64,000 nt of DNA from a virus: positions 2,891 through 66,890 of IMG/VR virus record IMGVR_UViG_3300028920_002938; one strand, written 5' to 3'. A program made the translations under genes and the position numbers. The notes beneath the pieces are model-generated. The model was not told the origin of the DNA, did not search any database, and worked only from the letters and a program-made list of their open reading frames with translations. This document shows, in pieces, positions 103 through 57,160 of the stretch. Position 1 is the first letter of the stretch; every line of letters starts with the position of its first letter.

Positions 103-765
103 TTATAGTGGGCTTAATATCTTACCCTCTATTTTTACAGCAAAGAAATTCTTAGTGAGAAATGTGTCACTAATAGATTTGACTGCTACAATTCTCCTTT
201 CTCTTATACTAGATATATTATATCCCCCTTTTGGTGATATTATAATACTATTAGCAGAACAATATGTAGAGTCAATAAATGTAGGCTTACCTAATACCTT
301 ATATAACTCTCTTACAGCTCCAGGTCTTAGATTTCTGTAGAGAGTATCTCTAACACCAGATACCATATATGTCTCTATTGTTATATCGTAGTTGTTTTCA
401 TCCCACCTACCTATATTACACTCAAGATGATAGTTAGGATATTGGTTGCAGGAATAATAGATTAGAGCATTACCTGAATATCTATATGATGACTTTAGAT
501 TAAAGTTAAGACTCTTGCCTGGGTCTACAATATCAAATGTAAATGTTGTTGATAGTTTTTGTGAACCAACACTATTCTTTATTTTAGCCTTTGCGGTACA
601 TCCTGAATCTACAACATCTTGTATATTGATATAATACTTACCATCACTATCACTATATCCAGTGACAGAACCATCATATGTAATTGTTATTGTAGCATTA
701 GCAGTGGGATTACCACTCTTATCATAAACATATCCATATAAGGCATATGGAAATGAAAGTGCCAT
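103..765 (-). CDS. Virion-associated protein with N-terminal prealbumin/carboxypeptidase-regulatory-like Ig domain
   Basis: PYALYGYVYDKSGNP..ATITI..SDSDGKYYINIQ pattern; homologous to the N-terminus of 21678..24926. Confidence 0.6.
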   Translation of the reverse strand: MALSFPYALYGYVYDKSGNPTANATITITYDGSVTGYSDSDGKYYINIQDVVDSGCTAKAKIKNSVGSQKLSTTFTFDIVDPGKSLNFNLKSSYRYSGNALIYYSCNQYPNYHLECNIGRWDENNYDITIETYMVSGVRDTLYRNLRPGAVRELYKVLGKPTFIDSTYCSANSIIISPKGGYNISSIRERRIVAVKSISDTFLTKNFFAVKIEGKILSPL

Positions 766-3700
766 TACTTACCACCTATATTTAATGTTTCTGCATCACT
801 TACTGCAACCATTATAACATCATCCTCATATACATCAATACTTGGCTCGTAAAATCCTACAATATATATATTCCAAACATAATTAGTTTCGTTCCAGTAG
901 TATATGGCTTCTCCACTATCTAATGTTGTAGATATATGAGTATCAGCTATATCTTTAAGTGTTGTTGCTGCATTGTCAGTCCATCCAACATAATTCTTAC
1001 CAGCAGTAGATGTAGTTAAACTAACTGACCTAGAATTAGAGTAGGACATATCTGCATTACCAACCATATCTATCTGTGTATCACCACCAGATTCAGTTAG
1101 ATATATCTTAACTATGTCGTATGTATGTATGTCAAAGTTGTCTCCAGAGTCATTATATGGATGATATTCATACCACCATCCATTCACATACCAATCATTG
1201 TTGTAATTTCCACTCTTATTCCATATAGATATATACTCTCCACTATTAAATGTTATACCAGAAGAATTATCTATAATGTCAGCACAATCCACCGCAGTAG
1301 TATTATCACCCAACCACACAAAGTATTCTAGTCCGTTTGTCCTAATAGTAGTATTGTATGTTTCAGGAGGTGATGGGGGCTGGTACTCATGGATACCTAT
1401 ATCAGTTGTGCCGACTCTACTGTTACCCCAGAAATCTGTAGATGGTGCATTTACATCAGTACCGTTATTGATGCATGGAGAAGTGGCAGTAATGTTAAAG
1501 TTACCATTATCTGAATTAACAAATTGTGGGTTGCCGTATACAGCTTCTTCTCCAAAGTTCCAATCAGTAAGGTTAGTATAAGTAGTTTCATCCCAACGGT
1601 TTTTATATGTACCAGAGGCACGATAATAACAATTATTACCTATATTAAGGTCTGTTGGTAATAAAAAGTGTCCACCAATAAAATTACTACTACCGTCGTA
1701 TTTGGTTAAAAATATGTTATTGTAGATATAAAACTCATCAATTGTCGTACCATTTATCTGATCTTGGCTATAATGACCTATTTGAATGAGATTATAATTA
1801 TTATTACTCCCAAGATGAACAACGTTATTATAAATATAGATATGATGGAATAAATCACCAGAGAAACCAGTGTTAGATATTCCAAGTGGTTCTGGATATG
1901 TGAGACTTGTAACGTCGTCTGGTTTTGTAAGGTTAATTATGTTGTTATAAATATATATGTATTCATAATGACCAGTAGTTTCAGTATTCAAAGAAATTCC
2001 AGATGCATTACCATATATAATATTATTAAAAATACTAATATTATGAGATACGCCACGAGCGTCAAGCATTATTGCCGGTCCACCATAATAATCTCCACCT
2101 ACTTGCTTTTGTAAAATACCTGTACCTGTATTGTTAATTGTATTATAACAACAATAACCGCCATTACACCCACCTTTCATATCAATATTTTCAGCGCGGT
2201 TATTAATTAATGTATTATTATTGATACTAAAATCAGTAACATTCTCAAAGCTTACTGTCTCCTGAGTGCTTTTAACCGCGCCAGTCCAATTATTGAAATT
2301 ATCATAAAGATAATTCCATTCAAATGTGATATTGTTATTCCCGTTTTTACTTTTTATAGCATGTCCTGAACTATTTGAAATAGTGCAATTATCAACACGT
2401 ATATTATTTACAGGGTCTTCACCTGCTAATACGCCAAGTGATATTCCGCCACTAGCACTATGATTAATTGTAAGACCAGTAATTCGAATATAATTACTTT
2501 CGTGAATTTGAAATACAGCATTAATACCATTGCTATATTGTGTAGGACAATTAGTTCCATCAACTATTACGACATCGTTTAAGTAATTTTGTATTGTTAG
2601 CCAATCGGATGACGCATCTTTACTTGTAATATCTATATGTCCACTCCACGGTGTATATGTTCCAGCCATGATATGAATTGTATCTCCATTCGTACTCTCA
2701 TTTACGGCTTTCCAAATTGTTTTAAAGGGATATATTAAACTTCCGTTATAATTATTATCGTCGCCAGATGTTGTATTAACGTAATAATCTGGACCTGAAT
2801 ATGGTCCACATGATATATCGTATTCGTGTATTCCGATATCTGTGATACCGATTCTACTGTTCCCCCAGAAGTCTAATAACGGTGCGTCTACATTGCTACC
2901 ATTGTTGATGGCAGGTGAATTAACTGTTATGTTAAAATCGCCACCGTCTGGGTCAACAAACGCAGGGGAAGCATTGATTTCATCTGTTCCCCAATACCTA
3001 GAGTCCGACACGTTGAAAAGGTTATGGTCTACATTGTGGTATTGTAGCAATAATTTATCAGATTTATCTGGGATATAAATACCATATGAAGCACCAGCAG
3101 AGTTATTATCCATAATGTTGTTTCTTATAGTTAAATTTACAAAGCTACTATTTACGTCAGTAATAAAAATTCCTACGCTAATGTTATACATAACATTGTT
3201 CCAAAAACCACAATTTGTTTTAAGATGTGACCCTGGTTCACTTGTATGATTATTTACATGAAATGCGTCGCTATCTCCTGATCCGTTGTAAATATTATTA
3301 TAGAACGATATATTGTCTAATGTTCCGCCCTGTTCAGTCCCCATTGTATATCCTGTTGTATTGCCCCAAACAATATTATTGTATATCGAAATATTACTGG
3401 CATCATCGTCAAAGGCGTCAACGTATATACCGCCATTACCTAAGTTGCCACCTACAATTGTGACATTAACTCTATTATTATAGATAAAACCATCGCGAGC
3501 AGTGTTTTTAGCATCTATATTAAGTTTATAATTGTGATAAAGGTAATTATCCCTAACCCAAAACCGTGTTACATTTGATATGGTTATAACCTCATTTGGA
3601 GCTGGATTATGTGCAGGATTCCAACTGTTCTGACAATTGTATAGAGTGTTATTCTCAACTATAATGTCTTCTATATATCCATATGCTGGATTTCCCGGAT

Positions 3701-6700
3701 AAAAATATATTCCTGAATCACTACAATTATAGAATGTACAGTTATCAACAGTTATGTTATGTGTTCCTGGTCCTAATGAACCATCAGCTCTAAAACCATT
3801 ACAACTCGAATTAGCAAATGTCAATCCAGTAATGCGAATATATGATTCATTAATTAACCATATCAATCCATCTGTTGCATCATTATCGCCACTACCATCA
3901 ATGGTTACATCATCATTTTCATAATTAGTATAAGTAATCCAATTATCAGACGTTCCACTATTAGCAGTTACTCCCCATGCAGATACATATTCTTGATAAT
4001 TTCCTTTCATTATATATAAAGTATCTCCAGCGTCTATTAAGTCCATACCATGAGTGATTGTTAACCAAGGACTTATAAGACTTCCATTATTAGTATCTAA
4101 TCCTGATGTTGCGTTTACATAATAATTAGGTCCTGCATATGAATCATCTTGTGTTTCAAAATGATAAGTTTCGTTGCACCAATCTTCTTCATCTGTTAAA
4201 TTTACTGACCAATAATATGTTGTGCCGTAATCTGAAAAGTTACTGTTTGTTTGATATATAACACCACCGTCTGATAATGATGAATTCTCAGTACCAAATT
4301 GAACCCAAGTACCACTACTATTACTATACCATTTAGCACTCATAGTATCATCGTCTTCGTCATTAACTGTTACATTTAATGTAGGAGTTGTCGCTATATT
4401 AGCAGATGCGTTAGTTGGACTTTCACCCTGTATCGTTGGTGCATTGTTTATTGGCGATTCTTCAGTTGTAAAGTTATATTCTGTATTAAGCCAATTAACG
4501 TCGTCACTGCAATTAATCCACCAAGTGTATTCAGTATCATAAGACAATCCACTAACAGTACATGTTTTTGTTCCTTCAGTTTCTCCCCATCCTTCATCAC
4601 TACCGATATCTGGACTAGTCTCGATATACCAATAAACTAAATCATTATCTGGTTCATCTATATCAACGCTTAAAGTTGTAGTAGAAATAGAAACATCTTC
4701 TGTGTCGTCACTTGGTGATTCGCTACTTAATGAACACTTGCCACCTATCTTTGGAATATATACGCCTGTAGCTAACCTTCTTTCGCTATAATGACAAGTA
4801 TCTGTCCTAACAGGATAATCTATTGGTGCATATGCAAACGTATCGTAACATGAAAAATTACCTACTGTAGAACTCATTCCACAAACTTCATTAAGCCCGT
4901 CATTATCTACATCTTGGACGACAAAATATACACCATAGCCTTCAGTAATTTCTCCAACATTTGTATAATTGGCGTCGTATATATCATAAGCACCATCTTC
5001 CCATACAGACCCTGAAAGTATATCTAACGAACTATCATTTATTATGTTTACAAAATCTGGCGGTTCACTCATGCGTTCAAGAGTACCCTCACTTTGCCAA
5101 TCAGTCCAATCCCAGATTTCTCCATCTTCAGTAGCACCATAATATCCATCTGCAATTTCAACATGACCATCTTCGTCAACGTCGTAAACTGCGAGAGTAT
5201 GATGAACAGATAAACCAAGAGTTGAGTCGCATTTACCTGCTATTTGTGACCCATTAGCCCAAAAAGAATATATTCCACCATTGGTATTTGAATTAGAAGC
5301 TATCAATACTTCTAAATCTTCGTCGCCTGTTAAATTAATTAAAGCTGCACAGTGGGATTCGGAACCAAAACTTGCAGTCGTCCATAAGTTCTCTAAATCT
5401 TCATTATAACATATACTGTCACCACTGTCACTCATAACTATCTCAAATTCTCCGTCTCTATCCAAATCAGCTATTGACACACCACCATAGCATGTGTAGC
5501 TCGTGTTAGTACTAGTGGCAACTAGCGCACCTGTCGTACCATTAAGTTTACTTGTCGCTGCGCTACCGCCAAATGCAGTGTTGTCAGAAACCCAAACATA
5601 TGGATAATTATTGTCGTCAGTATCGGCAATAGCTACGTATCCCCAACCAGAATCGGTAGCGACATCCCAAAAGATAGAACCATCTTCTGCATTACGTGCT
5701 ACAGACCTATAACCTGCTGCATGAACAAGTTCATAATCGCCATCGTTATCTAAATCATCGCAAGCAAGTGGTATATGCCAATCAACTAAATAACTGGCAG
5801 ACATAAACTTTTGCCATATTATTTCACCTGTTGAACCATTAAGACAAAAGATAGTAGCATTATCAAAATCTGGGTCATCAGTCCCAGCGTGAAATATTTC
5901 ATATATTCCATCGTCGTCGATGTCTACTGCAATTGGTTCGGCTGTTGGAGCATAGTTACGCACTCCAGTCATAATACCTGATGTTCTCCATTTAAGTTTT
6001 CCCCACTTATCAGTCATTGTAAAATGATAAGTCTCATTCTTCCATGTTCCTGCACCGTCTGTAACGTTAGCACTCCACCAATACTTTGTATCTTTATCAG
6101 AAAAATTAGAATTAAATCCGCTTATGTTAGTATTATTAGCAACAGAACTTTCAGAATCAAATTGTACCCAAGAACCAGTAGAGTTAGACCACCATGTTAT
6201 GTCCATAGCATCTCCAGTAGAATGTTCTATATTAACGTATAATCTTGGAATCGGACCAATGTCACTAGAATCGTTTGTTGGTGCTTCATTAGATAATGTA
6301 ATTTCTGGCACACTTGTGTTAAAAGTATAAACAAAATTCTTCCAGTTTACATTATCAGAAACATTAACGTACCATGTATATTCAGTATCAATTGCTAAAT
6401 CACTTACAGAACACGAAATAGTTCCTTCTGCATCGCCCTCACCACTATCTGAACCTATATCAGGACTTGTCTCTATTGACCAATATATTGGGTCATCATC
6501 TGGTTCATCAACTGATACACTTAAAGTAGATGTTGCAGTAGATACGTCACTAGCTCCGTCACTTGGTGATTCACTTGACAATACACATTTTCCACCAATC
6601 TTTGGTATGTATATGCCAGCAGCTTGTCGTCTTTCACTATAGTATGTAGTATCTGTTCTAACTTGAGGACTATTAACTTCTGTTAAAAGGTCATAGCATG

Positions 6701-9700
6701 AAAAATTATGATAATTAGTAGCAGATTTTCCACCGCCAAAAATACAAAGCTCATTAAGTCCATCATCGTCAACATCTTGTACGATGAAATAAGGACCATA
6801 ACACCAATTAATTTCAGGATTAGAACCTATTTCATCCACATTATCATAGCTTGAATCATAAATATCCATATATGCATCAACCCAAGAACCACCTGAAAGT
6901 ATTTCAAGGTCGCTATCACCAATAACGTTCACAAAATCTGGAGGTTCACTACCCTTTTCAAGAATTGTATCATTATCCCAATCGTCTACGTCAAATACGT
7001 AAACTGTATCTGGATATGATGGTGGGTCTAATTTTCCAATTACGACTTCAATACTTCCATCTTTATCTATATCATAAGCAGCTGGTTGACAATGACATGT
7101 ATCAGCTGCCCATATGCTACTATCTCCTTTCCAAAGAGTTCCGTTGGCATAATAAATATACATACCATCAGGACCCACGTCAGCTCCATTTTGATTTAGC
7201 ATGATAACTTCAAGGTCGGCGTCACCAGTACAATTAATTAGTACAGCGCAATGACTTTCAGAACTAAACGATGCTGTAGTCCAAAGGTTTTCCAAATCTT
7301 CATTGTAGCAGATGCTATCGCCACTATCGCTCATTACTATTTCAAATTCACCATCTCTATCAAGGTCTGCGATAGATACACCGCCATAACAAGTATAAGA
7401 TGTATTTGTACTAATAGCAACTAATGCTCCTGTAGTGCCATTGAGTTTTCTAGTTGCGGCAGAACCCTCAAAACCAGTATTACTAGAAACATATACATAA
7501 GGCCATCCATTATCATCTGTATCTGCTATAGCGGGGGTTCCCCAGCCACTATCTTGCGCAACTTCCCATAAAATAGTGCCATTCATACCATGTCTAGCAG
7601 TTGTAGTAGTTCCCGAAGCATGAACAAGTTCCTTGACACCATCATTATTAATATCGCCTATAGCCATAGGAATATGATACCCAGTAAGAGTTGTAATGTT
7701 TTTTTGCCAGTTTAATTCGCCTGTTGAACCATTGAAACAAACTATACCACTCTTCCAACTTCCATCATAAGTCCGATGTCCATGAAAAATTTCGTATATA
7801 CCATCCCCATTTATATCATCAGCAACAGGATTAGTATAGCTCGATGGTGTACCTATATTAGGGTCATAATTAATATTTCTCCATTTAAGTTGCCAATCAT
7901 CTGTTTGACTAGTGAAATGATATGTCGTATTAGTCCAATTACCTATACCATCAGTTGCATTAACACTCCAATAGTAAGTTGTATCTTTACTAGAGAAATT
8001 TGAATTAAAAGTGGTTATATTTGTATTGTTAGATACACTAGAAGCAGAATCAAATTGTGCCCAAGAACCTGATGAATTGCTCCACCATTCAACATCCATC
8101 GACACATCATTATTATTTGAAACAATTACATAAAGATATGGAATTAGTCCTACATCTGTAGTTTCATTTACAGGAGACTCGCCAGACTGTGAAATAATTG
8201 TTTGTGAAGGTGTTTCAGTAGTAAAATGAAACGTCTCATTATTCCAATATTCGCCATCTGTAACATTCATTGACCAATAGTATGTTTCTGAAAAATCACT
8301 AAAATTAGAATTTAATTGACTTATATTAGTATTATTTACGACACTTGTATTTGTACCAAACAATGCCCATGAACCTTCACTATTGCTATACCATGTAACG
8401 GTCAAATAATCGCCATCTGGGTCAGAAACAATCCCAGCAACTAAGGAGTTAACAGCAATATCAGTAGAACTATTTGTTGGAGATTCGCCAGAAATTGCAT
8501 TTGGCGCACTATTTATCATTGGTTCTTCCATTCCAATTGTTAAGAAACCCTCCTCTTGATTTTGGTTGCTAAAAGTAGCATTAATCCATGCTGGGTCTAA
8601 AGTGCCATTCATTATTACAACTTCATCTACAGTTCCATTAAAATCATAATCACTAGTTGTATCTTTTGTCCATGTTGTTGAACAACCAATACCCCACGGA
8701 TACGCTGAAAAATTAAGATTATCATTCGACGCAGCACTTGTATCATCAACTAAATAAGTAGTGTCATTTCCAATAGTTATAATTTCGCCTCGATTTGCCA
8801 CCATAGCACAGAAATACCAAAAATGCGCTGTGGCGCCTGTGGTATGGCAAAAGTTGTCATAAACAACATCGTCTAGTTTTAATCTAGTTAGTAAAGACCC
8901 ATTATTAGCTGTACCACAGCGTATACCATCATTCGCATAATATCTAGAAATAATACCTCGATTTGTAAGAAATCCGTCATTAATATCTGGGTCCCCAATT
9001 TCCCAATATGCATCTGACCTAACCCAACAATATATCGTTATTGGTTGGTCTTCATTTATCGCATCTAAAACTAAAGCGTCATCTACGTTTGAGAAGTTAC
9101 AGGCATATCCTACTTTGCCTTCACTCCTATATGGGTCTCCTGCATAATTAGTTGTAGCAGATGCGTCATTATTATTAGAAGTAGAGTCTGTATAATGGTC
9201 GGCATCGGCACTATATTCTTCTTCTAAATGCTGTACCATGCGAAAATTACTATTCCATGTATTTTCAATATCCCACTGATTTCCTATAGAATCATTACCA
9301 TAGTACATATTAAAGTGGGTATCTGTATCATCAGAAATACTTGTAACATTTACCCATGCCCAAAGTGTGCCATTCGTACTATCATAATACTCTATTTCAT
9401 GATTGAATTTAGTAACATTATACGTATCAACAAATATTATATCCCCACCATCAGATTGTGCATGTGATTGTAAACCAGAATCATTATCCATATATACTAA
9501 TAATGGAAAGTTTGTCAATTCACTATCAATTTGACTACTATCAATCGTTATATCTCTTCTATAATCAAAATCACTACTATACCATCCAGCGTCGCTAACT
9601 TCGTATGTGCAATACATACAATATCTATAACCACTAGATGATTCACCAGTTAATGGGTCATCCCAGTCACCGTAATAATCATATTTGTAAAAACTCCATC

Positions 9701-10286: not shown

Positions 10287-10317
10287 ATTTAACCTTTCTT
10301 ATATAAACATTTAAACA

Positions 10318-10674
10318 TTATTCTATCTCCTTTGATATAAAGGGAATGTAAACTTTTTTACCCTTAATTCGAATTGGTAAAGCTCCAAATACTTCTGTAT
10401 TGTTTCTTATCCAATCCCATGATACCCCAGAAGGTCTAACAAACCTGTCTGGTAATTCACTAAAGTCTATATTATTACTATCTAATTTGATGTTTCCGCC
10501 TACAATATTTACACTACCAGATTTATCCACTTCTATGAGAGAGTTCTTACCTTTTATTATAAATGTACCCTCTCCTGTACTAGCTATGTATGTTCCGTAG
10601 TCATCGAGATATATTCTCTTTGCTAATATATATTCTTGTCTATTCTTTTTTGCCATCTTTTCTCTATATCCCAT
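10318..10674 (-). CDS. Hypothetical tail-region protein
   Basis: 118 aa ORF in the operon directly after the tail hub gene. Confidence 0.6.
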   Translation of the reverse strand: MGYREKMAKKNRQEYILAKRIYLDDYGTYIASTGEGTFIIKGKNSLIEVDKSGSVNIVGGNIKLDSNNIDFSELPDRFVRPSGVSWDWIRNNTEVFGALPIRIKGKKVYIPFISKEIE

Positions 10675-10676
10675 TA

Positions 10677-13565: not shown

Positions 13566-13567
13566 AT

Positions 13568-18997: not shown

Positions 18998-19065
18998 GGT
19001 ATCACTTGGCTGTTATAGCCATTATTTATAATGTTTTTCTTCATTTTCATCAAAATATTGATTTT

Positions 19066-19200
19066 GCTCGAGGATCGTCATAGAGCGATTCTGAGACGTT
19101 TTGGGGGGGTCACTGGTATCCTACCATTAGTGGCGGAGGGTTTTTGCGTTAGCGTGGCTCTTTACCCCCTTCTCGTGCATGATTTTGAGGGGTCCTCGAC
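19066..19200 (+). ncRNA. GC-rich intergenic island, candidate structured RNA or cis DNA element
   Basis: GC-rich stretch in an AT-rich genome. Nested pairings 19068-19076/19191-19199, 19077-19081/19179-19183, 19103-19110/19164-19171 and 19111-19117/19126-19132. Confidence 0.4.
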
Positions 19201-19214
19201 CCAAATTAACATAT

Positions 19215-19535
19215 TCAATCTTGTGTATCCACAATCTGAATTAAATCTCTCTGTATTATCGGTTTATATCCATATGATCCACCTAATGAATGATATCCAC
19301 TCCATTGGATTACATATATACCCAATGGATCAGTTGAAGATGTATTAAAGTAATAATGATATTCTCCAGTTCCATCTCTTGTAGCTCCACTTGCATTTAC
19401 TAATGTTGTACCATCTGGTTTTATTACTGTTACAAATGCTTTGTTTCCTGATGGATCTGTGAGTACTCCACTAGATTTAAAATCTATGTCTGTCTTAACA
19501 GTATTGCCTCTTTCAAAACGGTCCGTTCTAATCAC
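19215..19535 (-). CDS. Small Ig-like virion protein (BppU N-terminal-like)
   Basis: F..G.LTDP...FVTVIKPDGT..TRDGTGEYHYYF...LGIYVIQWSG pattern. Confidence 0.55.
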   Translation of the reverse strand: MIRTDRFERGNTVKTDIDFKSSGVLTDPSGNKAFVTVIKPDGTTLVNASGATRDGTGEYHYYFNTSSTDPLGIYVIQWSGYHSLGGSYGYKPIIQRDLIQIVDTQD

Positions 19536-21694: not shown

Positions 21695-24600
21695 CTGTAT
21701 TAGTTAAAGTAAACAAATCACTGTTAGTAGTTGTAGATGTAAACAAATCAGAATTTGTAGGTGTCATAGTAAATAGACTTGTATTACTTAATGGAAATGA
21801 TAACATAGATGACTCTGTAGCTTTAGCATAATCTATAAATGTAATTGTTAATGGAATTATTCCAATACTATATATAATTGACAAATTAGTACCAAATGTA
21901 GAATAATCAGCTAAATAACTCACTAAATTAACTCCTTCAGTTGTATAATCTATATTATATGCTTTAGATAAAGCTAATGAAAGTAATGTACTAATTGTAC
22001 TACTTATTGTAGTATTAGTATTTTTTAGTAATAAATCAAATAAACTATTCAAAGTCTCTTCTGATTTATTAAGAATATCTATCCTTTCTGATATTGTATT
22101 TTCTCCAGTTAGTTCTTGAGTTATATCATAATTAACTGACTTATTAGGTGTTTTAATTAATGTATCTATTATGTAGTTAGAAGTGTTGTTTGAAACGAGC
22201 ACAAAGAATGTTATTAAATAGTCTAGTGATAAGTTATTTGCCTTAACTATGTAGTCAATTAATGAGCTTATAGAATATACTTCTCCAGATATGAAATCTA
22301 TTAGATTTCTTGTAGTTACTCCTAAATCTTCTAAAAGATTATCGATAGTATAATTCTCAGACTTACTTTCTATTGTAATTAAGTCAGATAATAAATTCAT
22401 ATCTAGCCCAGCACTCTGAGCATATAGATTAATTATATATGACTTATCTAGTCCTAGATTCTGTAAGAGAGTATCTACAGTTATGTTTTTTGACGTGATT
22501 ATAGACATTAGAATATCAATCTTTTCTTTCTCTGTTAAATCTACTGTTTTAGTTAAATAATCAATATTATAGTCTATACTCAATCCTGCTGTTCCAAATA
22601 TAGCATCTATTAATACATTATTAGAGAATGAATCTTTGAGTAGTGTATCTATATCATAATTCAATTCTGATATTCTACCAACAACTAAATCTATTATTGT
22701 ATTTAATGTATGAGTATCTTTAATCACAACATCTATGTCATAGTCTAGAGTTATCCCAAGTTCTTCTAGTAGTATATCTATGTCTTGTTTCTTTTCAGTT
22801 GCTGACTGTATTATAATTTCAATTAGTTGATTTATAGTTATACCTGAATTTTGTAGTATCATATCTATATTGTTTAGCTTGAGTATTGTTAGCTTCATAA
22901 GAATAGATATTATATTTTGTATTGATTTGTCTTTACTACTTATGATTAAAGTTATTAGTTCATTCCTATCTATACCAATGTTTTTTATTAGAGAGTCTAT
23001 GTCATATTTCTTTGATGATGTATATTTTCTCAAGAAATCTATTACTTGATTCAGTGTAATGTATTCTCCCATTGTAATGCTAATATCATGATTCCTTATT
23101 TGTGTATAGAATGTAGAATAATCTATGTTATGTCCTCTTATATTACTTATATATGTAATAATATCAATTATCTCATTAATGTTATGTGTTTGTTTTATTA
23201 GTAGAGCTATTAACTCATTTATATCTAGTGACTCATTTTTGATTAGCATATCTTCTAGATTGTTTTGTGTGGATTGATACTCTGTCATATAGTCAATTAA
23301 ATTGTGTTTAGTCTTTATTCCACCACATATAAACTCTAATTTATTATGGAGTGTTTCTGTCTTGAATGTGGCATAGTCTATATCATAATTAAGTATGTGT
23401 ACCTTTTCAGCAAATAAATCAATTAAATTAACAATATCTAAATCCTTATTCTTTATTAATGTATTTATATCCACTTTCAACATATTACTTATATTGGATA
23501 TTAGCATATCAATATCTATTTTTAATTCCTTTGATGACTCTATTAATAGATTAATCTTTTCCTTTAGTGTAATATCCTTTGCTTTTACTAATAAATCAAT
23601 TTTGATTGATTCGGAAATTAATATATATATTAATAAATCTATTGTTTCTTTTCTATATATATTTTTATTGGAAGTTAGTATATCAATAATTTCATTCATA
23701 GATAGTTGTTCTTTTATCTCTTGTATCAACATATCTATTTTCATACTAACATCTAAGTTTTCTACTTTAGCAAATAAATCAGTTAGATTATTCTTATCTA
23801 TTCCTGATTGTTCTATTAATATATCAATTACTTCTGATATGTCTAAATTCTTGTTCTTTATTAATTGAGTGATTATGTTTCTTATTGTTAAACCTTCAGA
23901 TTGAATTAAGTCTATTAAATTACTAATTTCACTATTTTTTGAATAAATTAGTGAGTCAATCTCACTTTTTCTTTGATTTGAAGCCATTTGCAATATATCA
24001 ATTATGTTATTTGTTATGTCTTCCTTTGATATTAAAGTGCTTATATCTATACCTACTGAATTATCTACTTTTTTTATTAGCAAGTCAATATCCATTTTTA
24101 TTAGATTGTCTGATGAGGAAGCAATTAAGTCAGTTATATACGATTCACTTTTCTGTGACTGAAATAGGGTATCTATTAGAAAATTTATATCATTGTTTTT
24201 TTGTACTATTAACAAATCAACTAATTGGTTAATATCTTTATCATCCGATTTTAGTATTTCATCAATCTTTGGTGTTATATCCATTGATTGTTTGATTAGC
24301 AAATCAATATCGTAATCCTCACTACTCTCTAATTTAGTAAGAACATCTACTGTAATATATCTTTTTATATCACTTAGTATTTGTATTAAGTCCTGTTTGT
24401 TTGATTGTGATAACTCTTGTTTTATTATTATATCAATTATCTTATGTATTTGGATATTAGAGCCAGCTATTAGAGTATCTATCTTTTCTTTTAGTGTTAA
24501 ATCCTCTATAGAAACTAATAAATCACTTAAATTATTAATTGTCTTACTCTCATCCATTGTCAATAAATCAGTTTTTGAGTACCTTGGAATGTCTATATGT

Positions 24601-24926
24601 TGTAGTAAGGTATCTGTTTTGTATAAGCCTGTCTTATCTGGATATATATCAAAATTTATTTCTTCTGCTGGTCCACTTATATCTAATGTAAATGATTGTG
24701 ACCAAGTAGTATCTGATTCTGTAAAATGAACTCTTTCTGTATTGCCATTATCAGCAGAATTTTGTATGTCTATTGCATAATATCCACTAGCATTAGTCTG
24801 ACCAGAGGCAGATAGAGCATTTTCTATATCCTCTATATATATCCAATGAGTAGTAAGTGGACTACCTTCTTTCTCTACTAAACCATAAACTACGTAGGGG
24901 TGAGCTAAACTCATGACTGATCCCAA
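21678..24926 (-). CDS. Long 14-15 aa tandem-repeat fibre protein with N-terminal prealbumin-like domain
   Basis: Dozens of (K/L/D)IDLLI-type repeats at a 14-15 residue period; C-terminal TNSDLFT repeats; likely start at MSLAHPY (24914). Confidence 0.65.
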   Translation of the reverse strand: MGSVMSLAHPYVVYGLVEKEGSPLTTHWIYIEDIENALSASGQTNASGYYAIDIQNSADNGNTERVHFTESDTTWSQSFTLDISGPAEEINFDIYPDKTGLYKTDTLLQHIDIPRYSKTDLLTMDESKTINNLSDLLVSIEDLTLKEKIDTLIAGSNIQIHKIIDIIIKQELSQSNKQDLIQILSDIKRYITVDVLTKLESSEDYDIDLLIKQSMDITPKIDEILKSDDKDINQLVDLLIVQKNNDINFLIDTLFQSQKSESYITDLIASSSDNLIKMDIDLLIKKVDNSVGIDISTLISKEDITNNIIDILQMASNQRKSEIDSLIYSKNSEISNLIDLIQSEGLTIRNIITQLIKNKNLDISEVIDILIEQSGIDKNNLTDLFAKVENLDVSMKIDMLIQEIKEQLSMNEIIDILTSNKNIYRKETIDLLIYILISESIKIDLLVKAKDITLKEKINLLIESSKELKIDIDMLISNISNMLKVDINTLIKNKDLDIVNLIDLFAEKVHILNYDIDYATFKTETLHNKLEFICGGIKTKHNLIDYMTEYQSTQNNLEDMLIKNESLDINELIALLIKQTHNINEIIDIITYISNIRGHNIDYSTFYTQIRNHDISITMGEYITLNQVIDFLRKYTSSKKYDIDSLIKNIGIDRNELITLIISSKDKSIQNIISILMKLTILKLNNIDMILQNSGITINQLIEIIIQSATEKKQDIDILLEELGITLDYDIDVVIKDTHTLNTIIDLVVGRISELNYDIDTLLKDSFSNNVLIDAIFGTAGLSIDYNIDYLTKTVDLTEKEKIDILMSIITSKNITVDTLLQNLGLDKSYIINLYAQSAGLDMNLLSDLITIESKSENYTIDNLLEDLGVTTRNLIDFISGEVYSISSLIDYIVKANNLSLDYLITFFVLVSNNTSNYIIDTLIKTPNKSVNYDITQELTGENTISERIDILNKSEETLNSLFDLLLKNTNTTISSTISTLLSLALSKAYNIDYTTEGVNLVSYLADYSTFGTNLSIIYSIGIIPLTITFIDYAKATESSMLSFPLSNTSLFTMTPTNSDLFTSTTTNSDLFTLTNTVEAAD

Positions 24927-27900
24927 GTTCTATCTGTACTTATTTTTGTAATACATACATCCCACAAATCAACTGCTTGATTTGTATTTATTGGGGTTCC
25001 TTGTATGTGGAATATCCACTCATAAGTTGAATTATCCCAAACACCTATAAAATATCCATTAGACATACTCATAGCATCAGCCTCTGTACCTAAATCACTA
25101 CTAACCCCACTACTAAATCCAGTATAATTATATCCATTGCCAACATTAGTTAATACAAATGTACGGTTTTCATAATTATCAGTATAATCAGAGTTCTCAG
25201 TCATATTAAAAGATAGGTCTCCTGTATCATCAGATAAATTAGTTTTTATTACATCAAAAGTATAAATATCTATATCGTCAACTCCACCACTATCACTAGA
25301 AGTATAGTTAACAAAATGACCTGTATCATCTAGATGACATATTTCATCAATTCCATCAAAAGTATAACCTGTCATATTTTCAACAACCCCACTCATAGAT
25401 GTATTACCACCTAACCACACAAAATAGTCTATTCCATTAGTACGGATAGTTGTACTATACGCTGTTGCAGCCCAACTCACATTCCAACTACTAAAATTAA
25501 CAGCACCATCAAAACTTCCAAAGATTTTGATTTCTTGGTCGTTTACACTGCTTATATCTGAACCATCGGAAAGACCTGTGAGTATGTCTGCACCTGTTGT
25601 TGCATTAATTATTTTAAACGTACTATTTGCTGTATTATTTACCTGTGCATAAAATTTATCCCAAGTACCAGTATCACTCCTGTTTTTTGATATACTTGTA
25701 ATGTTTCCCTCATAAAAACCAAGTTTAAGTGCTGATATACTACCGTGGTCTACTGTTATACTTCCACTGTTACCATACTGTTTTACTTCCATACTAATGT
25801 CGTCACCATTTGTAAGGTCAAATAACGCACCTATACAATATCCTACTTCATCTGCACCACTATCACGGTTATATCTTCCACCTATACACCACGGTGCTAC
25901 TACATCATTAATGGAAAACTGTCCTGCTGGTTTTGCTCTTGCTACCCCACCTGCATCTGCTTGAACACTAGCCATTACAAGATATGTTGCATCACTGTCA
26001 ACCTCGAAATAACTGTTACTTGCTGAAAAAGTAAATGTATCCTCTGAAATGAATTCCTCTGTTGATAAAGCTAGTTCTGTTAGACTTGCAGGGTTCATAT
26101 CAACATTGCTTGTTGTTGCACGAAAGGTTTCTGCTGTATCAGGTAGTTTTACTATTTCAATACTTGTACCTGTATCAATCATTAATGTACCATCTGTTTC
26201 ATAGGCTTGAAAGTTTAATACATCATCTGTGCTTACGTTTATTATTCCTACCCAACTTGTTGCACCATCGTTATCATTCTCGAAGTCACGGTTATACATA
26301 GATACGTGACTTCCTTCTACTTCTGTATCATCAAGAGTTAGACGAAATACACCCTCTGTTCTACCATTTGCATCATAGGTTTTTACTGTATAAGCTACTA
26401 AGTATTTACCTGCGTCACTAATGGTTATATCACTACCACTAAGACTGAAACCAGTATCTTCCTCTACAACCTGAAGATTAATTATATCCTCCCAAGTATT
26501 AAGAGTACAAGCATTATCCTGTGCTGATGTATTGTATCTTCCATAGTTCCAAGTATCATCAAGTTTCAATATTGATATACCTGCATAATTAGCAATACGG
26601 TTAAGACTACCACTTGTTGTTGCATCAAGTCGCCAGTAACCAATTTTCATATCAGTAGATGTTGTTATATCAATTATACTTGCACCAGTTGGGAAACATT
26701 CTTGGTCACCATTGGCTTTACGAATATAATAACCACTATGCCCAGTGTCAAGAAGCTTGTATCCACCTCCTTCATCTATGAATATTCCACCAAGTCCTTG
26801 TACACGTTCATTAGCTGTTGTATCTGCTGTATAGAAATAATCATTGTACATTACCAAGTATTTACCAGTTGCAAGTGTAAACTCACCTGCATTATATGTT
26901 ATATCGCTTCCTTCTGATTTTACCTCGTTATCATAGTTTACATAAGTGATACTGCCACCTTCAGCAATCTCAGTGGTATCAGCACTATTATTCCGTATCA
27001 GATAACTAAGAACACCACCACCACCTGATTCATCAACTGTATACCAACCTTTAGAGTTATATGTCAAATTAGTTGTACTACTAATGTTTTCCTCGTTGAG
27101 AAATGTATCATTGTTATAGTTTACCCAGAAAAAATTTGAATCACTTGTATTGCTATTTCCAAAGCTATCATTAACAATTACATACCAATTATGATAACCA
27201 CCATTAATTGTCCAATCATAATAATATGTACCATTTGCTTTGTTTGAATGTGTAAATAGATGACTACTGTCACCATAGAAACTGATATTCATCGTATCTC
27301 CTTCAGGGTCAGCTACTGTTGCTGAAAGATTTACAGGACTTATCTGTCCACTGTTATCAAGTGGTGAATTAATTGTAATCTCTGAAGTGCTATTAGACCA
27401 ACCAATAGTTGTAAATGTAAATGTTTTATTTTTCCATCCACCTTCTCCATCAGATACATTCATAGACCACCAATATTGTGTATTACCATCGGAAAAATTT
27501 GAAGTCACTTGTGTAACATTTGTATTACCAGAAACACTGGTATTTGTGTCACCAAATTGTATCCATGCTCCACTAGAATTGCTGTACCATGTTACATTAA
27601 GTGTGTCACCATCTAAATCATCAACGATTCCAGCTACTGTAGGATTAGTTTGAACATCAATAGTACCATTCGTGGGTGACTCTCCTAAAATAGCCAATGG
27701 ATGTCTATTTATTAACGAGCTTGTTTTTTGATGATTATATCCTTGTTCAGTCCAATCGTTATCAGCGCTATTTGCGCCATGTGTGCCAAAAATATATAAT
27801 TCATTGCCATTAGGGTCTCCGCAATTTGCAACTACAACTTCGGTTATTCCATCATCGTCAATATCTGCTACAACCGGTGTTGTGATAGCAGAGAAAAATA

Positions 27901-30775
27901 TTGGACATGCCGATACTAGCGATATGTCAGAACCGTCGTGCGTAAAAATTTGTAGTTGTTGATTTGCACATACTAAAAATTCTAACGTACCATCATTGTT
28001 TAAATCTGATATTGAAACAGGTCCAGATACAGTACCACAATTATAATTATCTTCTTCTGTAATTGTAGACCCATCATGACTTAATACATATACATATCCA
28101 CCACCACCAACAACTATTTCTATAGTGCCATCATCATCAATGTCTGCTATAGCTGCGGCTTTTGCATTTCCATCAGTTGTAAAATTATCTTCTTCTACTA
28201 AACTTGAACCTGTACTATGAAGAATATATACATTATCGTCTTCACTTGGCGCAATTATTTCATTTACTCCATCTTTATCAATATCTGCTACTGAAACTTG
28301 ATATGCGTCATGTGATAAATCGCTAAAATTTGATTCTTCAATTAAATCAATTCCATTATGTTCAAAAACATATACAAGAGGCGCCTCATTAGGACCGATA
28401 ATTTCTATTTCTGCATCATCATCTAAATTTGCTACTGTAGATGTATATAAAAAACCATCTTCACATACAAATATAGATTCGTTACTTATGTCGCCATCAC
28501 TATAATTAAATACGTACATTACATCGTTACCAAAATTTCCAATAGCTATTTCATAATTTCCATCTCTATCAATGTCTGCTACAGCTGGTGAACAATCTTT
28601 AAACTCATTTCCTAATAGTTCTGTAGCTTCATAGTAATCTTCTAAACTAATCGTAGTACCAGAATGATTAAATATATAAAATCGAGTACCAGCATTAGCA
28701 ATAAGTATTTCTATCTCATCGTCTCCATCTATATCAATTAATGTTGGATGCGCATCTACATTACCATTAGTGTTATAATCATCTTCCTTTGTAATTGTTG
28801 AACCATCGTGATACAATACACTTACATCCTCATCTATATCACCAATTACAATTTCCATGTCATCGTCATCATCTATATCGCCAAGCGCGGGCGTTGTCCA
28901 CATAGTGTTGCCTGTTGCATACTTGGCTTCAAATGATAATGTTATACCTGACGGTCTATCAGTATTATTATTTGCTTCCGTATTAGCATAATATTCTGCA
29001 TAATCAGTATAGCCGTCATTATCTGTATCAGCAACAAATGGATTTGTGTATGAACCCCATGTTGTATTCAATTCTACATAATCAGATAATCCATCTCCAT
29101 CTGTATCGGTAGAATTATCGCTACCAGATTTAATATCACTTGGAACATCCCATATTATAAACGACTGAACGCTTTGATTGCAAATGACTGATGGGTAACC
29201 CTGCGCTGCTGATTTACAGACATGAAAATAAGCTTCATACACGTCATTATCTTGAAACGAAAAATCTGTTATATCAACGTAACCTGCAAATAAATTAAAT
29301 TCTTTATTATCTCTAAAACATCCATCCCAAAGCATATCTTCGAGACTATCAGCGACTTTTGTAATAGTCCAACCAGTATTATCTAATGTTGCTGCTCCTC
29401 GTTTTTTGCCAAATGTTATTTGAAGGTTTACCGATTCAAAGTGTAACCAAGTGTGCACGTATGGTTCTGTTACAGTCATGTTTTGAGCACATACATCATC
29501 TGCAAACCAATGACCAACAAAGGCACTACACCATATCTGGTTCATATCATCAGTTAATGTGTCATTAGCCAAATAACCTGTGTCATTCCAACTACCGTCA
29601 GGACCTTGGTCGTTTAACAATCTATCTGCTTTATTTTCATCTCCAGAACCATATGTAAGAAACGGACCAGTCCGATACGTAGAATTTAACATATAATATG
29701 GTTCGTAACTAATATTTTGTGCAGTACAATTTAATTGCACCCATCGCCTAGTGTTAGAACCACCTACACCAGTTTTATTCCAGAATACTATATTTGTATT
29801 AGAGTTATCACTTGAATCCGTTGCGAATATGTCAAAACTATAATTGCTTCCCGCTACTGTTGCGTTAGCTACTGGAAATGATGTTACAATAGCCCATACA
29901 TCATCACCCTGGTCAGATAATGTAGAACTATTATACCATGTAGTGACGCCGTTTGTTTCATTAACCCAATGCAAATATACGGAATCCAATCCAGAATCGT
30001 CTGTTATAGTCGCAACAATATTTATATATCCTTCATGCTGATAACTGCTATTAGTATAATAACCATCATCGGCAGTTGTAGTCGCCTCTAATGGCGGTTG
30101 ATATAATGGTCCACCATCATCGGATGAATTACCTGCGAACGTTATTGTTATTGACGGTGGTGTTGTATCTTCTGTAGCAACTTCCCACATTTGTACTTCT
30201 GCAAGTCTAGCAGTTTTAGACATAAGTGAATTACTATTATGAAATCGTACACGACATCTATCTCTAGTAGATTCGGTAAATGATTTCTCTATATCTGAAC
30301 CTGTAGTAAATGCACCTTCGTAAACGTTAGTCCATACAGCTCCGCCATTAGATACATCTATGTCTATCTCGTCTATGCCACTTGCAGTTTGCGTCAATGT
30401 TCCAATATAATATTGAACTTTGCTACTAGTTATAGCAGAATCTAATATAAAACTACAAAAACCACCCCAATTACCACCAGGGCCTCCACTAACCGTATTA
30501 ACAGCATCAGTTCCATTATTTCCATCATACGCATTTGTTTCAGTAGTCCATTGACTATCGTGGTCTGTATAACTAGTGGGACTTATCCATTCATCACCTG
30601 CAGGTGGTTCTGGTATTGGTGAAGTGTATATCAATCCACCAGTTATTGTAACTCCACCTAATATTAAAGCCAAAAATGCTTTTTTATGTTTTTTAATCCA
30701 AGGAATGATGTCCTTTCCAAAAATAATCGTACCCGTAATGAGTAATAATAATCCTAATATCAACCAAATAATCAT
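24911..30775 (-). CDS. Giant (1954 aa) membrane-anchored adhesin-like protein: TSP3-like Ca repeats, FG-GAP propeller, Ig-like units, three C1q/TNF-like domains
   Basis: Same two-hydrophobic-segment N-terminus and C-terminal domain as 765..10286. DTDGDGLSDYVE..TNPFVADTDNDG; multiple DIDDDGxxE repeats; three GKYLV/ATYLV units; many sequons. Confidence 0.78.
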   Translation of the reverse strand: MIIWLILGLLLLITGTIIFGKDIIPWIKKHKKAFLALILGGVTITGGLIYTSPIPEPPAGDEWISPTSYTDHDSQWTTETNAYDGNNGTDAVNTVSGGPGGNWGGFCSFILDSAITSSKVQYYIGTLTQTASGIDEIDIDVSNGGAVWTNVYEGAFTTGSDIEKSFTESTRDRCRVRFHNSNSLMSKTARLAEVQMWEVATEDTTPPSITITFAGNSSDDGGPLYQPPLEATTTADDGYYTNSSYQHEGYINIVATITDDSGLDSVYLHWVNETNGVTTWYNSSTLSDQGDDVWAIVTSFPVANATVAGSNYSFDIFATDSSDNSNTNIVFWNKTGVGGSNTRRWVQLNCTAQNISYEPYYMLNSTYRTGPFLTYGSGDENKADRLLNDQGPDGSWNDTGYLANDTLTDDMNQIWCSAFVGHWFADDVCAQNMTVTEPYVHTWLHFESVNLQITFGKKRGAATLDNTGWTITKVADSLEDMLWDGCFRDNKEFNLFAGYVDITDFSFQDNDVYEAYFHVCKSAAQGYPSVICNQSVQSFIIWDVPSDIKSGSDNSTDTDGDGLSDYVELNTTWGSYTNPFVADTDNDGYTDYAEYYANTEANNNTDRPSGITLSFEAKYATGNTMWTTPALGDIDDDDDMEIVIGDIDEDVSVLYHDGSTITKEDDYNTNGNVDAHPTLIDIDGDDEIEILIANAGTRFYIFNHSGTTISLEDYYEATELLGNEFKDCSPAVADIDRDGNYEIAIGNFGNDVMYVFNYSDGDISNESIFVCEDGFLYTSTVANLDDDAEIEIIGPNEAPLVYVFEHNGIDLIEESNFSDLSHDAYQVSVADIDKDGVNEIIAPSEDDNVYILHSTGSSLVEEDNFTTDGNAKAAAIADIDDDGTIEIVVGGGGYVYVLSHDGSTITEEDNYNCGTVSGPVSISDLNNDGTLEFLVCANQQLQIFTHDGSDISLVSACPIFFSAITTPVVADIDDDGITEVVVANCGDPNGNELYIFGTHGANSADNDWTEQGYNHQKTSSLINRHPLAILGESPTNGTIDVQTNPTVAGIVDDLDGDTLNVTWYSNSSGAWIQFGDTNTSVSGNTNVTQVTSNFSDGNTQYWWSMNVSDGEGGWKNKTFTFTTIGWSNSTSEITINSPLDNSGQISPVNLSATVADPEGDTMNISFYGDSSHLFTHSNKANGTYYYDWTINGGYHNWYVIVNDSFGNSNTSDSNFFWVNYNNDTFLNEENISSTTNLTYNSKGWYTVDESGGGGVLSYLIRNNSADTTEIAEGGSITYVNYDNEVKSEGSDITYNAGEFTLATGKYLVMYNDYFYTADTTANERVQGLGGIFIDEGGGYKLLDTGHSGYYIRKANGDQECFPTGASIIDITTSTDMKIGYWRLDATTSGSLNRIANYAGISILKLDDTWNYGRYNTSAQDNACTLNTWEDIINLQVVEEDTGFSLSGSDITISDAGKYLVAYTVKTYDANGRTEGVFRLTLDDTEVEGSHVSMYNRDFENDNDGATSWVGIINVSTDDVLNFQAYETDGTLMIDTGTSIEIVKLPDTAETFRATTSNVDMNPASLTELALSTEEFISEDTFTFSASNSYFEVDSDATYLVMASVQADAGGVARAKPAGQFSINDVVAPWCIGGRYNRDSGADEVGYCIGALFDLTNGDDISMEVKQYGNSGSITVDHGSISALKLGFYEGNITSISKNRSDTGTWDKFYAQVNNTANSTFKIINATTGADILTGLSDGSDISSVNDQEIKIFGSFDGAVNFSSWNVSWAATAYSTTIRTNGIDYFVWLGGNTSMSGVVENMTGYTFDGIDEICHLDDTGHFVNYTSSDSGGVDDIDIYTFDVIKTNLSDDTGDLSFNMTENSDYTDNYENRTFVLTNVGNGYNYTGFSSGVSSDLGTEADAMSMSNGYFIGVWDNSTYEWIFHIQGTPINTNQAVDLWDVCITKISTDRTWDQS

Positions 30776-32986: not shown

Positions 32987-33433
32987 TTAGTCTGATATTC
33001 TTACACCAGAACCTGCTACAGGTCTTTTTGTTATATTGTATGGATCCAGAACTGTAAAGTCTACTGAACCTTCTGTCACTGTACTAGCATCTCCTAGTGC
33101 TAAGTCGAATCCTGTAATTTGGCAAGATTTGAATACAAACCTTAAACTATGTGGTCCTGCACAACCAGAAATCTTAACTTTTGTACCGTTAATTAAAGCA
33201 CCAACTGTAGTTTCTGCTACTTCGTCAGCCCATTCTGCGTTTGTGAATGACCCTTCAATGGACATTGATCCTTGACTAAACGAATTACCAGCTTCACCTA
33301 ATAGTTCTTGTTCTACGGTACCTCTTGTTATACTAAGTGTAAAATTACCTAGTCCACAAGTTGTATGACTTTGACCACTAATCCAAATTTTTGCATTTTC
33401 ACCAGTATACGTTTTTGGGGTTACAGCTGCCAT
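32987..33433 (-). CDS. Tail tube protein paralogue 2
   Basis: TGENAKIWI..RGTVEQELLG..QGSMSIEGS..SCQITG.D..GDASTVTE.S.DFTVLDP; clearly paralogous to 33436..33870. Confidence 0.7.
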   Translation of the reverse strand: MAAVTPKTYTGENAKIWISGQSHTTCGLGNFTLSITRGTVEQELLGEAGNSFSQGSMSIEGSFTNAEWADEVAETTVGALINGTKVKISGCAGPHSLRFVFKSCQITGFDLALGDASTVTEGSVDFTVLDPYNITKRPVAGSGVRISD

Positions 33434-33435
33434 AT

Positions 33436-33870: not shown

Positions 33871-33893
33871 CTATTTTTAAATTAAAACATACA

Positions 33894-34283: not shown

Positions 34284-34284
34284 A

Positions 34285-57149: not shown

Positions 57150-57160
57150 AGTTGAATTAA

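Follow-up and report, generated by a model that had tools for sequence, protein, structure and literature searches.

Assembly of tailed viruses is taken to be an entirely cytoplasmic process, and passage of their fibres through the host glycosylation machinery is not expected; archaeal N-glycosylation acts on exported proteins, a premise already used in a preliminary description of the DNA studied here. Among the closest described proteins are the nosD-like or beta-helix adhesion proteins of sediment viruses, which have lectin-like domains and are often encoded near structural genes (Narayanan et al., ISME J 2026, PMC13452462). In the main-text part of that article compared here, one adhesion protein has a signal peptide and adjoins a dockerin domain, and three hypotheses are proposed for the role of these proteins: host attachment, lysis and host-cell adhesion. 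The portions used of two further articles describe the hafunavirus gp38-like adhesins as host-recognition proteins in variable parts of the tail module (PMC8651126), and report for HRTV-DL1 that ORF24 has nine N-x-S/T sequons, that virions give faint glycostained bands above 72 kDa and that deletion of aglB is without effect on the virus (PMC10384203). Here we analyze a 64,000-nucleotide (nt) stretch of virus DNA (the window; bases 2891-66890 of the single 66,890-base IMG/VR record IMGVR_UViG_3300028920_002938) that encodes two giant putative adhesins of 3173 and 1954 amino acids (aa). We tentatively propose that these are exported, N-glycosylated, host-like proteins that dock by their C-termini to a stalk or adaptor made in the cytoplasm and thereby become virion fibres completed at lysis, a reading to which we would give a little less than an even chance.

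Two giant proteins with shared termini

Both giants are encoded by intact open reading frames (ORFs). The features used below, in window coordinates, are as follows.

765..10286, minus strand: giant adhesin 1, 3173 aa (intact ORF, Pfam)
24911..30775, minus strand: giant adhesin 2, 1954 aa (intact ORF, Pfam)
10116..10286, minus strand: N-terminal hairpin of giant 1, with helix 1, a K-rich loop, a Gly/Ala/Ser-rich helix 2 and a Pro/acidic linker
30620..30775, minus strand: N-terminal hairpin of giant 2 (hydropathy, translation)
768..1358, minus strand: C-terminal docking domain of giant 1, 197 aa (alignment, AlphaFold, complex model)
24914..25459, minus strand: C-terminal docking domain of giant 2, 182 aa (BLASTP, alignment)
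8199-8513, 7893-8207, 6000-6314 and 4137-4451, minus strand: Ig-like repeat copies of giant 1 (alignment)
27395..27709, minus strand: Ig-like repeat of giant 2 (alignment)

From its hairpin, giant 1 runs through a DUF2341/lectin-like region, Ig-like repeats, two FG-GAP propellers and two beta-helix regions to the C-terminal docking domain (hereafter the C-domain); in giant 2 the hairpin is followed by TSP3 repeats, an FG-GAP propeller, an Ig-like repeat, a weak BclA_C-like region and the C-domain. The preliminary description had claimed a common N-terminus composed of a hydrophobic helix, a WIKK loop, a second helix and PPAGxE, together with a homologous C-terminal domain in both proteins. The two translations and BLASTP of giant against giant confirm each of these, with 43% identity over 44 columns (E 8e-5) for the N-terminal module and 33% over 172 columns (E 3e-17) for the C-domain. 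Kyte-Doolittle windows exceed 1.6 at residues 1-29 and 38-57 of giant 1 and at residues 1-27 and 32-52 of giant 2; the loop between these helices contains WIKKN-WKK in the former and WIKKHKK in the latter, and PPAGxE follows helix 2 in both.

The further claim that the interiors differ holds in part. Private domains exist: DUF2341 and two beta-helix regions are matched by Pfam in giant 1 only, and the TSP3 repeats and a BclA_C-like match (23.6 bits, under the 38-bit cut-off) in giant 2 only. The FG-GAP propellers and the Ig-like repeat, however, are common to both. The propeller regions align at 25% identity over 477 columns, with FG-GAP_3 (cut-off 26.9 bits) scoring 46.0 bits in giant 2 and, just under the cut-off, 26.3 in giant 1. 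The Ig-like repeat, of about 100 aa, occurs in four copies in giant 1 and one in giant 2, at 46-47% identity (E 1e-29). No Pfam family, the intramolecular chaperone Peptidase_S74 included, matches the C-domain at E 0.01 or better, neither Pfam Cohesin nor Dockerin_1 matches the giants or the viral partner proteins introduced below, and a search of the viral proteins against NCBIfam gave no match.

A partner gene behind each giant gene

Directly behind each giant gene lies a partner gene that is absent from the preliminary description.

103..765, minus strand: partner 1, 220 aa, without a signal peptide; its start overlaps the stop codon of giant 1 (TAATG), and its dock domain is at 466-765
21678..24926, minus strand: partner 2, 1082 aa; its ATG at 24914 overlaps the stop codon of giant 2 (ATGA), and its dock domain is at 24615-24914

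The two partners share only a beta-sandwich domain of about 100 aa, which we term the dock. Five dock proteins score 22.6-30.6 bits against CarboxypepD_reg (PF13620), all under the 32.3-bit cut-off (partner 1: 25.7), and an Atlas search with the 220-aa partner returned CarboxypepD_reg leads only, at scores of 0.84-0.88; PHROGs gave no match to the partners except one family of unknown function. After its dock, partner 2 continues for about 950 aa as dozens of helical repeats of some 20-25 aa (IDxLI / DTLL) and ends in EAAD; its gene lies in the stretch of lowest guanine-plus-cytosine (GC) content in the window (0.245 over 22001-24000). None of the family libraries searched names this helical-repeat protein. 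Repeats of the same kind make up the C-terminal two thirds of a 720-aa protein encoded in the window and occur in a 659-aa protein of locus L096.

A dock ORF follows a giant twice in the window, in four IMG/VR loci (L001-L004) and in L096, which lies on a contig binned with a Thermoplasmatota genome. A metagenome scan seeded with a 5-row C-domain alignment added further cases: 32 of the 36 loci that extend at least 250 nt past the giant's stop codon have a dock ORF there. Giant and partner are separated by at most 17 nt in 31 of 36 unique pairs, and four of the five junctions read are ATGA or TAATG, stop/start overlaps that we read as translational coupling. Upstream of the dock the open frame is 12 aa or shorter in 39 of 41 cases, leaving no room for a signal peptide on the partner. 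We also considered a programmed frameshift that would fuse giant and partner, the partner being always in the -1 frame, and rejected it, as four of the five junctions are plain stop/start overlaps and no slippery heptamer was noticed.

Predicted binding of the C-domain by the dock

The modeled complex of C-domain and dock scores 0.87 (0.87, 0.88 and 0.84 in individual runs), with 0.02 as the best of three controls. The partner is modeled at a predicted local distance difference test (pLDDT) value of at least 89, and contacts agree between runs to at least 96%. The mark that we apply to such scores is reached by 58 of 80 solved complexes and by 2 of 110 mismatched pairs, counts that hold only roughly here because custom shallow alignments were used. 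Residues 6, 8 and 10 of the partner contact residues 162, 164 and 166 of the giant, a pattern that we read as a parallel partner strand added to the giant's sheet. Across pairs, identities among C-domains co-vary with those among docks (Mantel r 0.67, reached in none of 2000 permutations), and in each window pair both halves have the same nearest relatives; compared with one another, the window pairs have C-domains that are 30% and docks that are 29% identical.

Judging from these models, the C-domain is most likely a plug for the partner's dock domain. Attachment through the conserved C-terminal domain had been suggested in the preliminary description; the partner gene and the predicted complex favor that part of the suggestion, but attachment would proceed through a separate partner that had gone unnoticed.

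A recurrent family of C-terminal domains

Searching with the C-terminal domain of about 190 aa across viruses and hosts, as had been recommended, uncovered 176 clusters in addition to distant cellular homologues. Among 1.84 billion sequences, the C-domain profile matches 176 representatives at E of 0.001 or below, 153 at 1e-10 and 93 at 1e-30. Almost without exception the domain forms the extreme C-terminus of its protein, and the proteins range from 67 to 3796 aa. In the longest of these (P0065, 3796 aa), half of a C-domain (profile positions 96-143) is matched in 31 separate stretches, which indicates that the half-domain can form a long tandem array. Two C-domain proteins are also present in L108, and in L135 and L138, two loci of one 83-kilobase (kb) contig, so two cassettes per viral contig are a recurrent arrangement.

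An AlphaFold model of the C-domain built from 45 sequences has a pLDDT of 92.2 and a predicted template modeling score of 0.88; an earlier model from 5 sequences (pLDDT 56) was unusable. The newer model suggests two similar halves, each of strands plus one helix. No PDB entry matched this model in Foldseek at E 0.001 or better, a search of BFVD produced a single middling match, an uncharacterized marine phage protein (template modeling score 0.56, E 1e-2), and the best result of a wide structural search, Z 5.0, is within noise. C-domain patterns scanned over species-representative genomes gave no confirmed instance, and none of five genomes carrying the Ig-like repeat has a C-domain.

Sequon excess and a predicted membrane hairpin

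The preliminary description had reported dense sequons in both giants, unlike the capsid and tape measure proteins, and counts against shuffled expectation restrict the excess to precisely these two. Giant 1 has 113 N-x-S/T sequons where 56.6 are expected (z 8.2, about 2.0-fold) and giant 2 has 58 where 30.6 are expected (z 5.7, about 1.9-fold). The other 29 ORFs of the operon range from z -1.4 to 1.7, the capsid having 1 versus 1.9 and the tape measure 8 versus 10.4. None of the control motifs [ST]-x-N, N-[ST], N-x-x-[ST], D-x-[ST], Q-x-[ST] and N-x-[AG] is enriched in the giants. The excess persists under local shuffles of 30 or 60 aa and after removal of duplications (ratios 1.7-2.1), and none of 400 shuffles reaches the observed count. 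Pooled over 44 family segments there are 1168 sequons versus 556 expected (2.10-fold), and over the C-domain alone 313 versus 138 (2.27-fold); dock domains pooled in the same way have 45 versus 52 expected and thus no excess.

By a strict detector, 71 of 116 family proteins of at least 300 aa have the N-terminal hairpin. Of the others, several show a hairpin by eye, and in about nine an ordinary signal peptide takes its place. In the 71 hairpins the loop is 44% K/R, and the 20 residues past helix 2 are 19% D/E, 1% K/R and 14% Pro, a Pro-rich acidic linker being present in 48. The fraction of Gly/Ala/Ser/Thr is 0.46 in helix 2 versus 0.21 in helix 1. Under the positive-inside rule, positively charged loops stay cytoplasmic, and the K/R-rich loop would accordingly be cytoplasmic and the body of the protein outside; the hydropathy and charge bias of the hairpin fit this putative body-out topology. 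A class III signal peptide, of the type IV pilin kind, was considered and set aside: its motif occurs in only 7 of the 71 hairpins, and the first helix precedes it. Each of five candidate host-lineage genomes checked encodes STT3/AglB. Export and N-glycosylation, predicted in the preliminary description, fit the sequon excess, the charge bias, the signal peptides of relatives and of the cellular homologues described below, and the STT3/AglB of the host lineage; on this evidence, the giants are most likely exported and N-glycosylated.

Gene pairs within the tail module

One long minus-strand operon carries the head and tail genes together with both giant genes. The record, a provirus by the classification of its source, which estimates its completeness at 56%, has no terminal repeats of 10-300 bases at its ends. 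The main operon members around the gene pairs are listed below.

43449-44843, minus strand: large terminase (phrog_38, E 2.5e-80)
41782-43119, minus strand: portal (operon member, PHROGs)
37608-39104, minus strand: head protease (operon member, PHROGs)
36093-37073, minus strand: capsid protein (operon member, PHROGs)
32987-34764, minus strand: candidates for tail completion, tail terminator and tail proteins (weak, E 2e-4 to 1.5e-3)
19532..21694, minus strand: 720-aa protein with a conserved N-terminal part of about 260 aa, then helical repeats as in partner 2
13568..18997, minus strand: tape measure, 1809 aa (PF10145, E 1.3e-26)
10677..13565, minus strand: 962-aa protein directly after the tape measure (weak GpP-like match only, E 0.013)
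10318-10674, minus strand: 118-aa ORF behind the 962-aa protein, both at the distal-tail position directly upstream of giant 1

Giant 2 lies between tail-tube-like genes and the tape measure gene; after it come the 1082-aa and 720-aa proteins and a 106-aa protein, and then the tape measure. The tape measure, the 962-aa protein and the 118-aa ORF are spaced by 2 nt, with a further 31 nt to giant 1. The position of the tape measure places both cassettes inside the tail module; both giant genes are thus encoded within the tail morphogenesis module, as is typical of the tail-fibre class. Together they occupy 15.4 kb of the 66.9-kb record, about a quarter of the genome.

Related viral loci repeat this context. 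Of 20 related loci of at least 4 kb, 15 have BLASTP matches to structural-operon proteins (tape measure, tail tube, capsid), and the order giant, dock, helical repeats, tape measure recurs, the dock often being fused to, or then followed by, a helical-repeat protein like the 1082-aa and 720-aa proteins. The first 260 or so residues of the 720-aa protein have roughly 45-70% identity in 40 database matches whose C-terminal parts vary. In a 40.4-kb genome of the direct-terminal-repeats class (completeness estimate 56%), a 1073-aa giant and its partner lie between the capsid and tail-tube genes, and no ORF of at least 120 aa is longer than this giant. Locus L002 has, directly upstream of its giant, a 691-aa beta-helix protein (3773-5848, plus strand) with a signal peptide, a mild sequon excess (z 2.5) and no C-domain, which adds another apparently exported protein to a structural module of a virus.

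Several other features of the virus deserve mention. Its terminase matched 462 records among deposited phage genomes, all below 60% identity (27.9% for the best listed). Two paralogous capsid-like genes, at 36093-37073 and 39775-40737 (minus strand), each match major-head-protein PHROGs, and one ORF of L136 is 87% identical to the former and 31% to the latter. Tail length usually follows the tape measure at about 0.15 nm per residue, which gives roughly 270 nm for the 1809-aa protein; tape measures in related contigs range from 664 to more than 2100 aa. On the plus strand, the intervals 56010-58366, 60331-61548 and 61811-62398 hold genes for a MoxR-like AAA ATPase, which adjoins a DUF2201 metallopeptidase/VWA protein (E 8.8e-36), a C-5 cytosine DNA methylase (E 6.6e-86) and a GP88-family protein (E 1.5e-29). 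Left of the window, behind the 220-aa partner, are four ORFs (G000:C1:380-2958; L100), the first of 369 aa. The remaining three encode a 166-aa paralogue of the partner's C-terminal half (34% identity, E 3e-23), a 160-aa protein in which Pfam-type lectin domain Agglutinin_C is matched (E 1.6e-7) and a homologue of staphylococcal nuclease (116 aa, E 1e-15).

Host lineage and a cellular gene pair

Relatives of the Ig-like repeat point to the host lineage. In contigs sampled at one genome per species we found 91, of which 79 loci were kept; 73 of the 79 have a record title with Thermoplasmata, Thermoplasmatales or Thermoplasmatota, and the remainder comprise three titled 'Methanobacteriota archaeon' and one each titled 'Euryarchaeota archaeon', 'Kazan bacterium' and 'uncultured bacterium'. 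The giants at these loci are themselves rich in sequons (median z 6.4 over the first 30 of the 79 loci), and the loci have a median GC content of 0.37, close to that of the virus.

C-domain matches occur in 21 of 401 sampled Thermoplasmatota genomes. One is strong (E 2.9e-53) and lies beside a tape-measure-like gene; the others are weak (E 1.5e-11 to 7.2e-4). In three of the genomes (G263, G361 and G077; loci L097-L099) the weak match is at the C-terminus of signal-peptide proteins of 1265-1349 aa that have sequon z values of 8-11 and PKD, cadherin and NosD-like domains, one of the three having been scanned with Pfam (L099, the source of all Pfam domains given for these loci). An hhalign comparison of the viral C-domain with this cellular C-terminus gives a probability of 97.4% (E 1.5e-11, 167 columns), and the sequon W-N-x-S/T is kept even in such distant homologues. 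The gene that follows in these loci codes for a protein with a signal peptide and, at its start, the dock domain known from the viral partners; fn3, PKD and Dockerin_1 come next (L099). The full order of the operon is an archaeal type IV pilin-N giant (NosD/beta-helix/PKD), the C-domain adhesin, the CarboxypepD_reg-fn3-PKD-Dockerin_1 protein, a cadherin/PKD protein with an apparent C-terminal membrane anchor and a DUF7289 protein; an AAA+ ATPase-like gene, named from sequence only, adjoins it.

Discussion

We propose that the window holds two copies of a viral two-gene cassette in the tail module of a tailed virus or provirus of Thermoplasmatota archaea. The body of the giant would be assembled from domain types of the host's own giant surface glycoproteins. 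Its K-rich hairpin loop would stay cytoplasmic and helix 2 would act as a signal anchor, such that the whole body crosses the membrane and the host oligosaccharyltransferase (AglB) glycosylates its sequons. The partner, translationally coupled and without a signal peptide, would bind the C-domain through its beta-sandwich by strand addition to the sheet, and with its stalk may represent the virion-side half, made in the cytoplasm. When the cell opens, the exported giant would be captured through its membrane-distal C-domain, yielding long, host-like, glycosylated adhesion fibres. Because the partner has no export signal, the two proteins could meet only on a breach of the membrane, and such a meeting, combined with a cassette in the tail module alongside helical-repeat proteins, favors fibres completed at lysis over display on the cell surface or fibres made in the cytoplasm. 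The shared termini, sequon excess, gene pair, tail-module position, cellular homologue and interface behind this proposal are all computational results. A broader proposition, which we put forward more doubtfully, is that virions of some Thermoplasmatota tailed viruses are completed outside the cytoplasm, with fibres that are secreted, N-glycosylated, parked by a hairpin and joined to particles at lysis by a plug-socket pair taken from host surface display.

Several points weigh against completion of the fibres at lysis. Tail fibres are usually attached through a conserved N-terminal part and not through the C-terminus; in the giants the N-terminus is a membrane hairpin and the conserved binding module is C-terminal. 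That hairpin should keep the giant in the membrane, and no release mechanism is evident: we found no cleavage signal in it, and the Pro-rich acidic linker corresponds to no known processing site. In L001 and G320 the dock stands alone in a protein of 129-132 aa that lacks any evident virion-binding part. Sequons are in modest excess over the pooled partner proteins (220 versus 169, z 4.1), which would not be expected of purely cytoplasmic proteins; the window's own partners show none (z -0.4 and -0.1). The score of the modeled complex is a model's confidence, obtained from alignments of only 5 and 8 rows, and the Mantel correlation is confounded by shared ancestry, which alone could yield much of it. 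Finally, the 40.4-kb terminal-repeat genome has an integrase gene, which indicates that related viruses are temperate and makes a role in lysogenic conversion possible. From the evidence as a whole we infer, in addition to topology and glycosylation, that the proteins meet at lysis, that the giant leaves the membrane and that it is present on virions.

In the main rival explanation, the giants stay membrane-anchored on the infected or lysogenic cell, for adhesion to particles or neighbors, for aggregation that recruits hosts or for masking of receptors against superinfection, with a partner that caps or stabilizes the C-domain only after lysis, or acts elsewhere. In its favor, a two-helix hairpin that is not cleaved serves as an anchor and not for secretion, the viral giants copy those of the host surface in domain set and in sequon density, and the operon of the cellular homologue is one for surface display, encoding a dockerin and a membrane-anchored protein; temperate relatives and the provirus classification of the record are also as this explanation would have it. 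Such a role is moreover among the hypotheses published for the sediment viral beta-helix adhesion proteins, two of the three given in the part of that article compared matching the fibre reading and display on infected cells (PMC13452462). Conversion genes typically lie at operon ends, however, whereas the giant genes are inside late structural operons, where junctions overlap or are very short and the helical-repeat and tape-measure neighbors are conserved; a coupled partner without a signal peptide would be unable to join the giant on an intact cell; and together the two giant genes fill 15.4 kb of the 66.9-kb record. We consider display on the infected cell rather unlikely.

The gene positions in the tail module would also suit ordinary tail fibres that fold and join the tail in the cytoplasm, with sequons inherited along with captured host domains and a hairpin that acts at the fibre tip, for example in entering the target membrane. 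For a partner without a signal peptide, meeting the giant in the cytoplasm would be simplest, and, by a geometry taken from the complex model, a partner on the virion side would make the hairpin the distal end of the fibre. Yet the sequon excess extends to the C-domain, strong members of which come almost only from viral-type loci; this excess and the W-N-x-S/T kept in cellular homologues speak for continuing selection. A loop with seven charges between two 20-residue hydrophobic helices would, in addition, insert in the producer's own membrane, and some family members have a plain signal peptide in place of the hairpin, all of which makes cytoplasmic fibres distinctly improbable. To the idea that the genes are not viral at all, and are host surface-protein genes at a provirus border or the product of misassembly, we give almost no credence. 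The provirus classification, the incomplete record and the host-like domain content would be in keeping with it, but both genes lie on one strand, tightly spaced, between capsid/tail and tape-measure/distal-tail genes; the same arrangement occurs in independent viral contigs, one of them classed with terminal repeats; and strong C-domain members occur in 1 of 401 sampled Thermoplasmatota genomes, there beside a tape-measure-like gene.

The C-domain family, the dock partner gene, the predicted binding, the cellular gene pair, the link to the host through the Ig-like repeat and the placement of the cassettes in the tail module are new relative to the preliminary description. The published full texts that we searched contain no description of the C-domain family, the hairpin or the gene pair; supplementary gene tables were outside this search and could hold relevant entries. 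What emerges is a recurrent family of 176 clusters, tied to the structural module, in which giants with marks of export and N-glycosylation have dedicated partners. If our proposal is right, this would be a different way of arming a virion, in which a tailed virus completes its assembly outside the cell with fibres that are glycosylated by the host and mimic it; if the giants remain on the cell, it would be a large-scale remodeling of the infected-cell surface. A new docking pair common to viruses and their uncultured archaeal hosts would also help to assign hosts and to explore the surface biology of sediment Thermoplasmatota.

Comparison with known systems

The hairpin recalls the signal-arrest-release (SAR) domains of phage endolysins, in which a single N-terminal helix rich in small residues exits the bilayer when the membrane is de-energized at lysis. 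Helix 2 of the giants is similarly rich in Gly/Ala/Ser/Thr; the SAR domain, however, is a single helix, whereas in the giants a strongly hydrophobic helix 1 precedes helix 2.

The nosD-like adhesins of sediment viruses (PMC13452462) are likewise viral, combine beta-helix and lectin-like domains and are encoded near structural genes; a hairpin, sequon excess, conserved C-domain, coupled dock partner and cellular pair are not described in the main-text part of that article compared. Haloarchaeal tail adhesins, in the corresponding parts of their sources, are of small or ordinary size with no mention of a hairpin or docking partner, in contrast to the roughly twofold sequon excess over 1954-3173 aa seen here.

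Cohesin-dockerin display is alike in principle: variable extracellular proteins carry at one end a small conserved module that fits its counterpart on a scaffold, and diverged cognate pairs coexist in one genome, as the two pairs of the window do. The cellular homologue's partner even ends in Dockerin_1. The viral pair is nevertheless no member of that system, having no Pfam match to either module, no clear structural relative of the C-domain and a socket without a signal peptide.

The giant surface proteins of Thermoplasmatota cells, those of the L097-L099 operon included, resemble the viral giants in the Ig-like repeat (35-61% identity), in FG-GAP, PKD and beta-helix domains and in sequon excess. 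The cellular pair has a homologous C-domain, if a distant one, with the same dock domain in the next gene. Both cellular proteins have signal peptides of the cleavable type, whereas in the virus the giant has a hairpin and the partner no signal. The virus would thus appear, from these sequence comparisons, to carry its own version of a host surface-display pair, in which the giant's signal peptide has given way to a hairpin and that of the partner has been lost.

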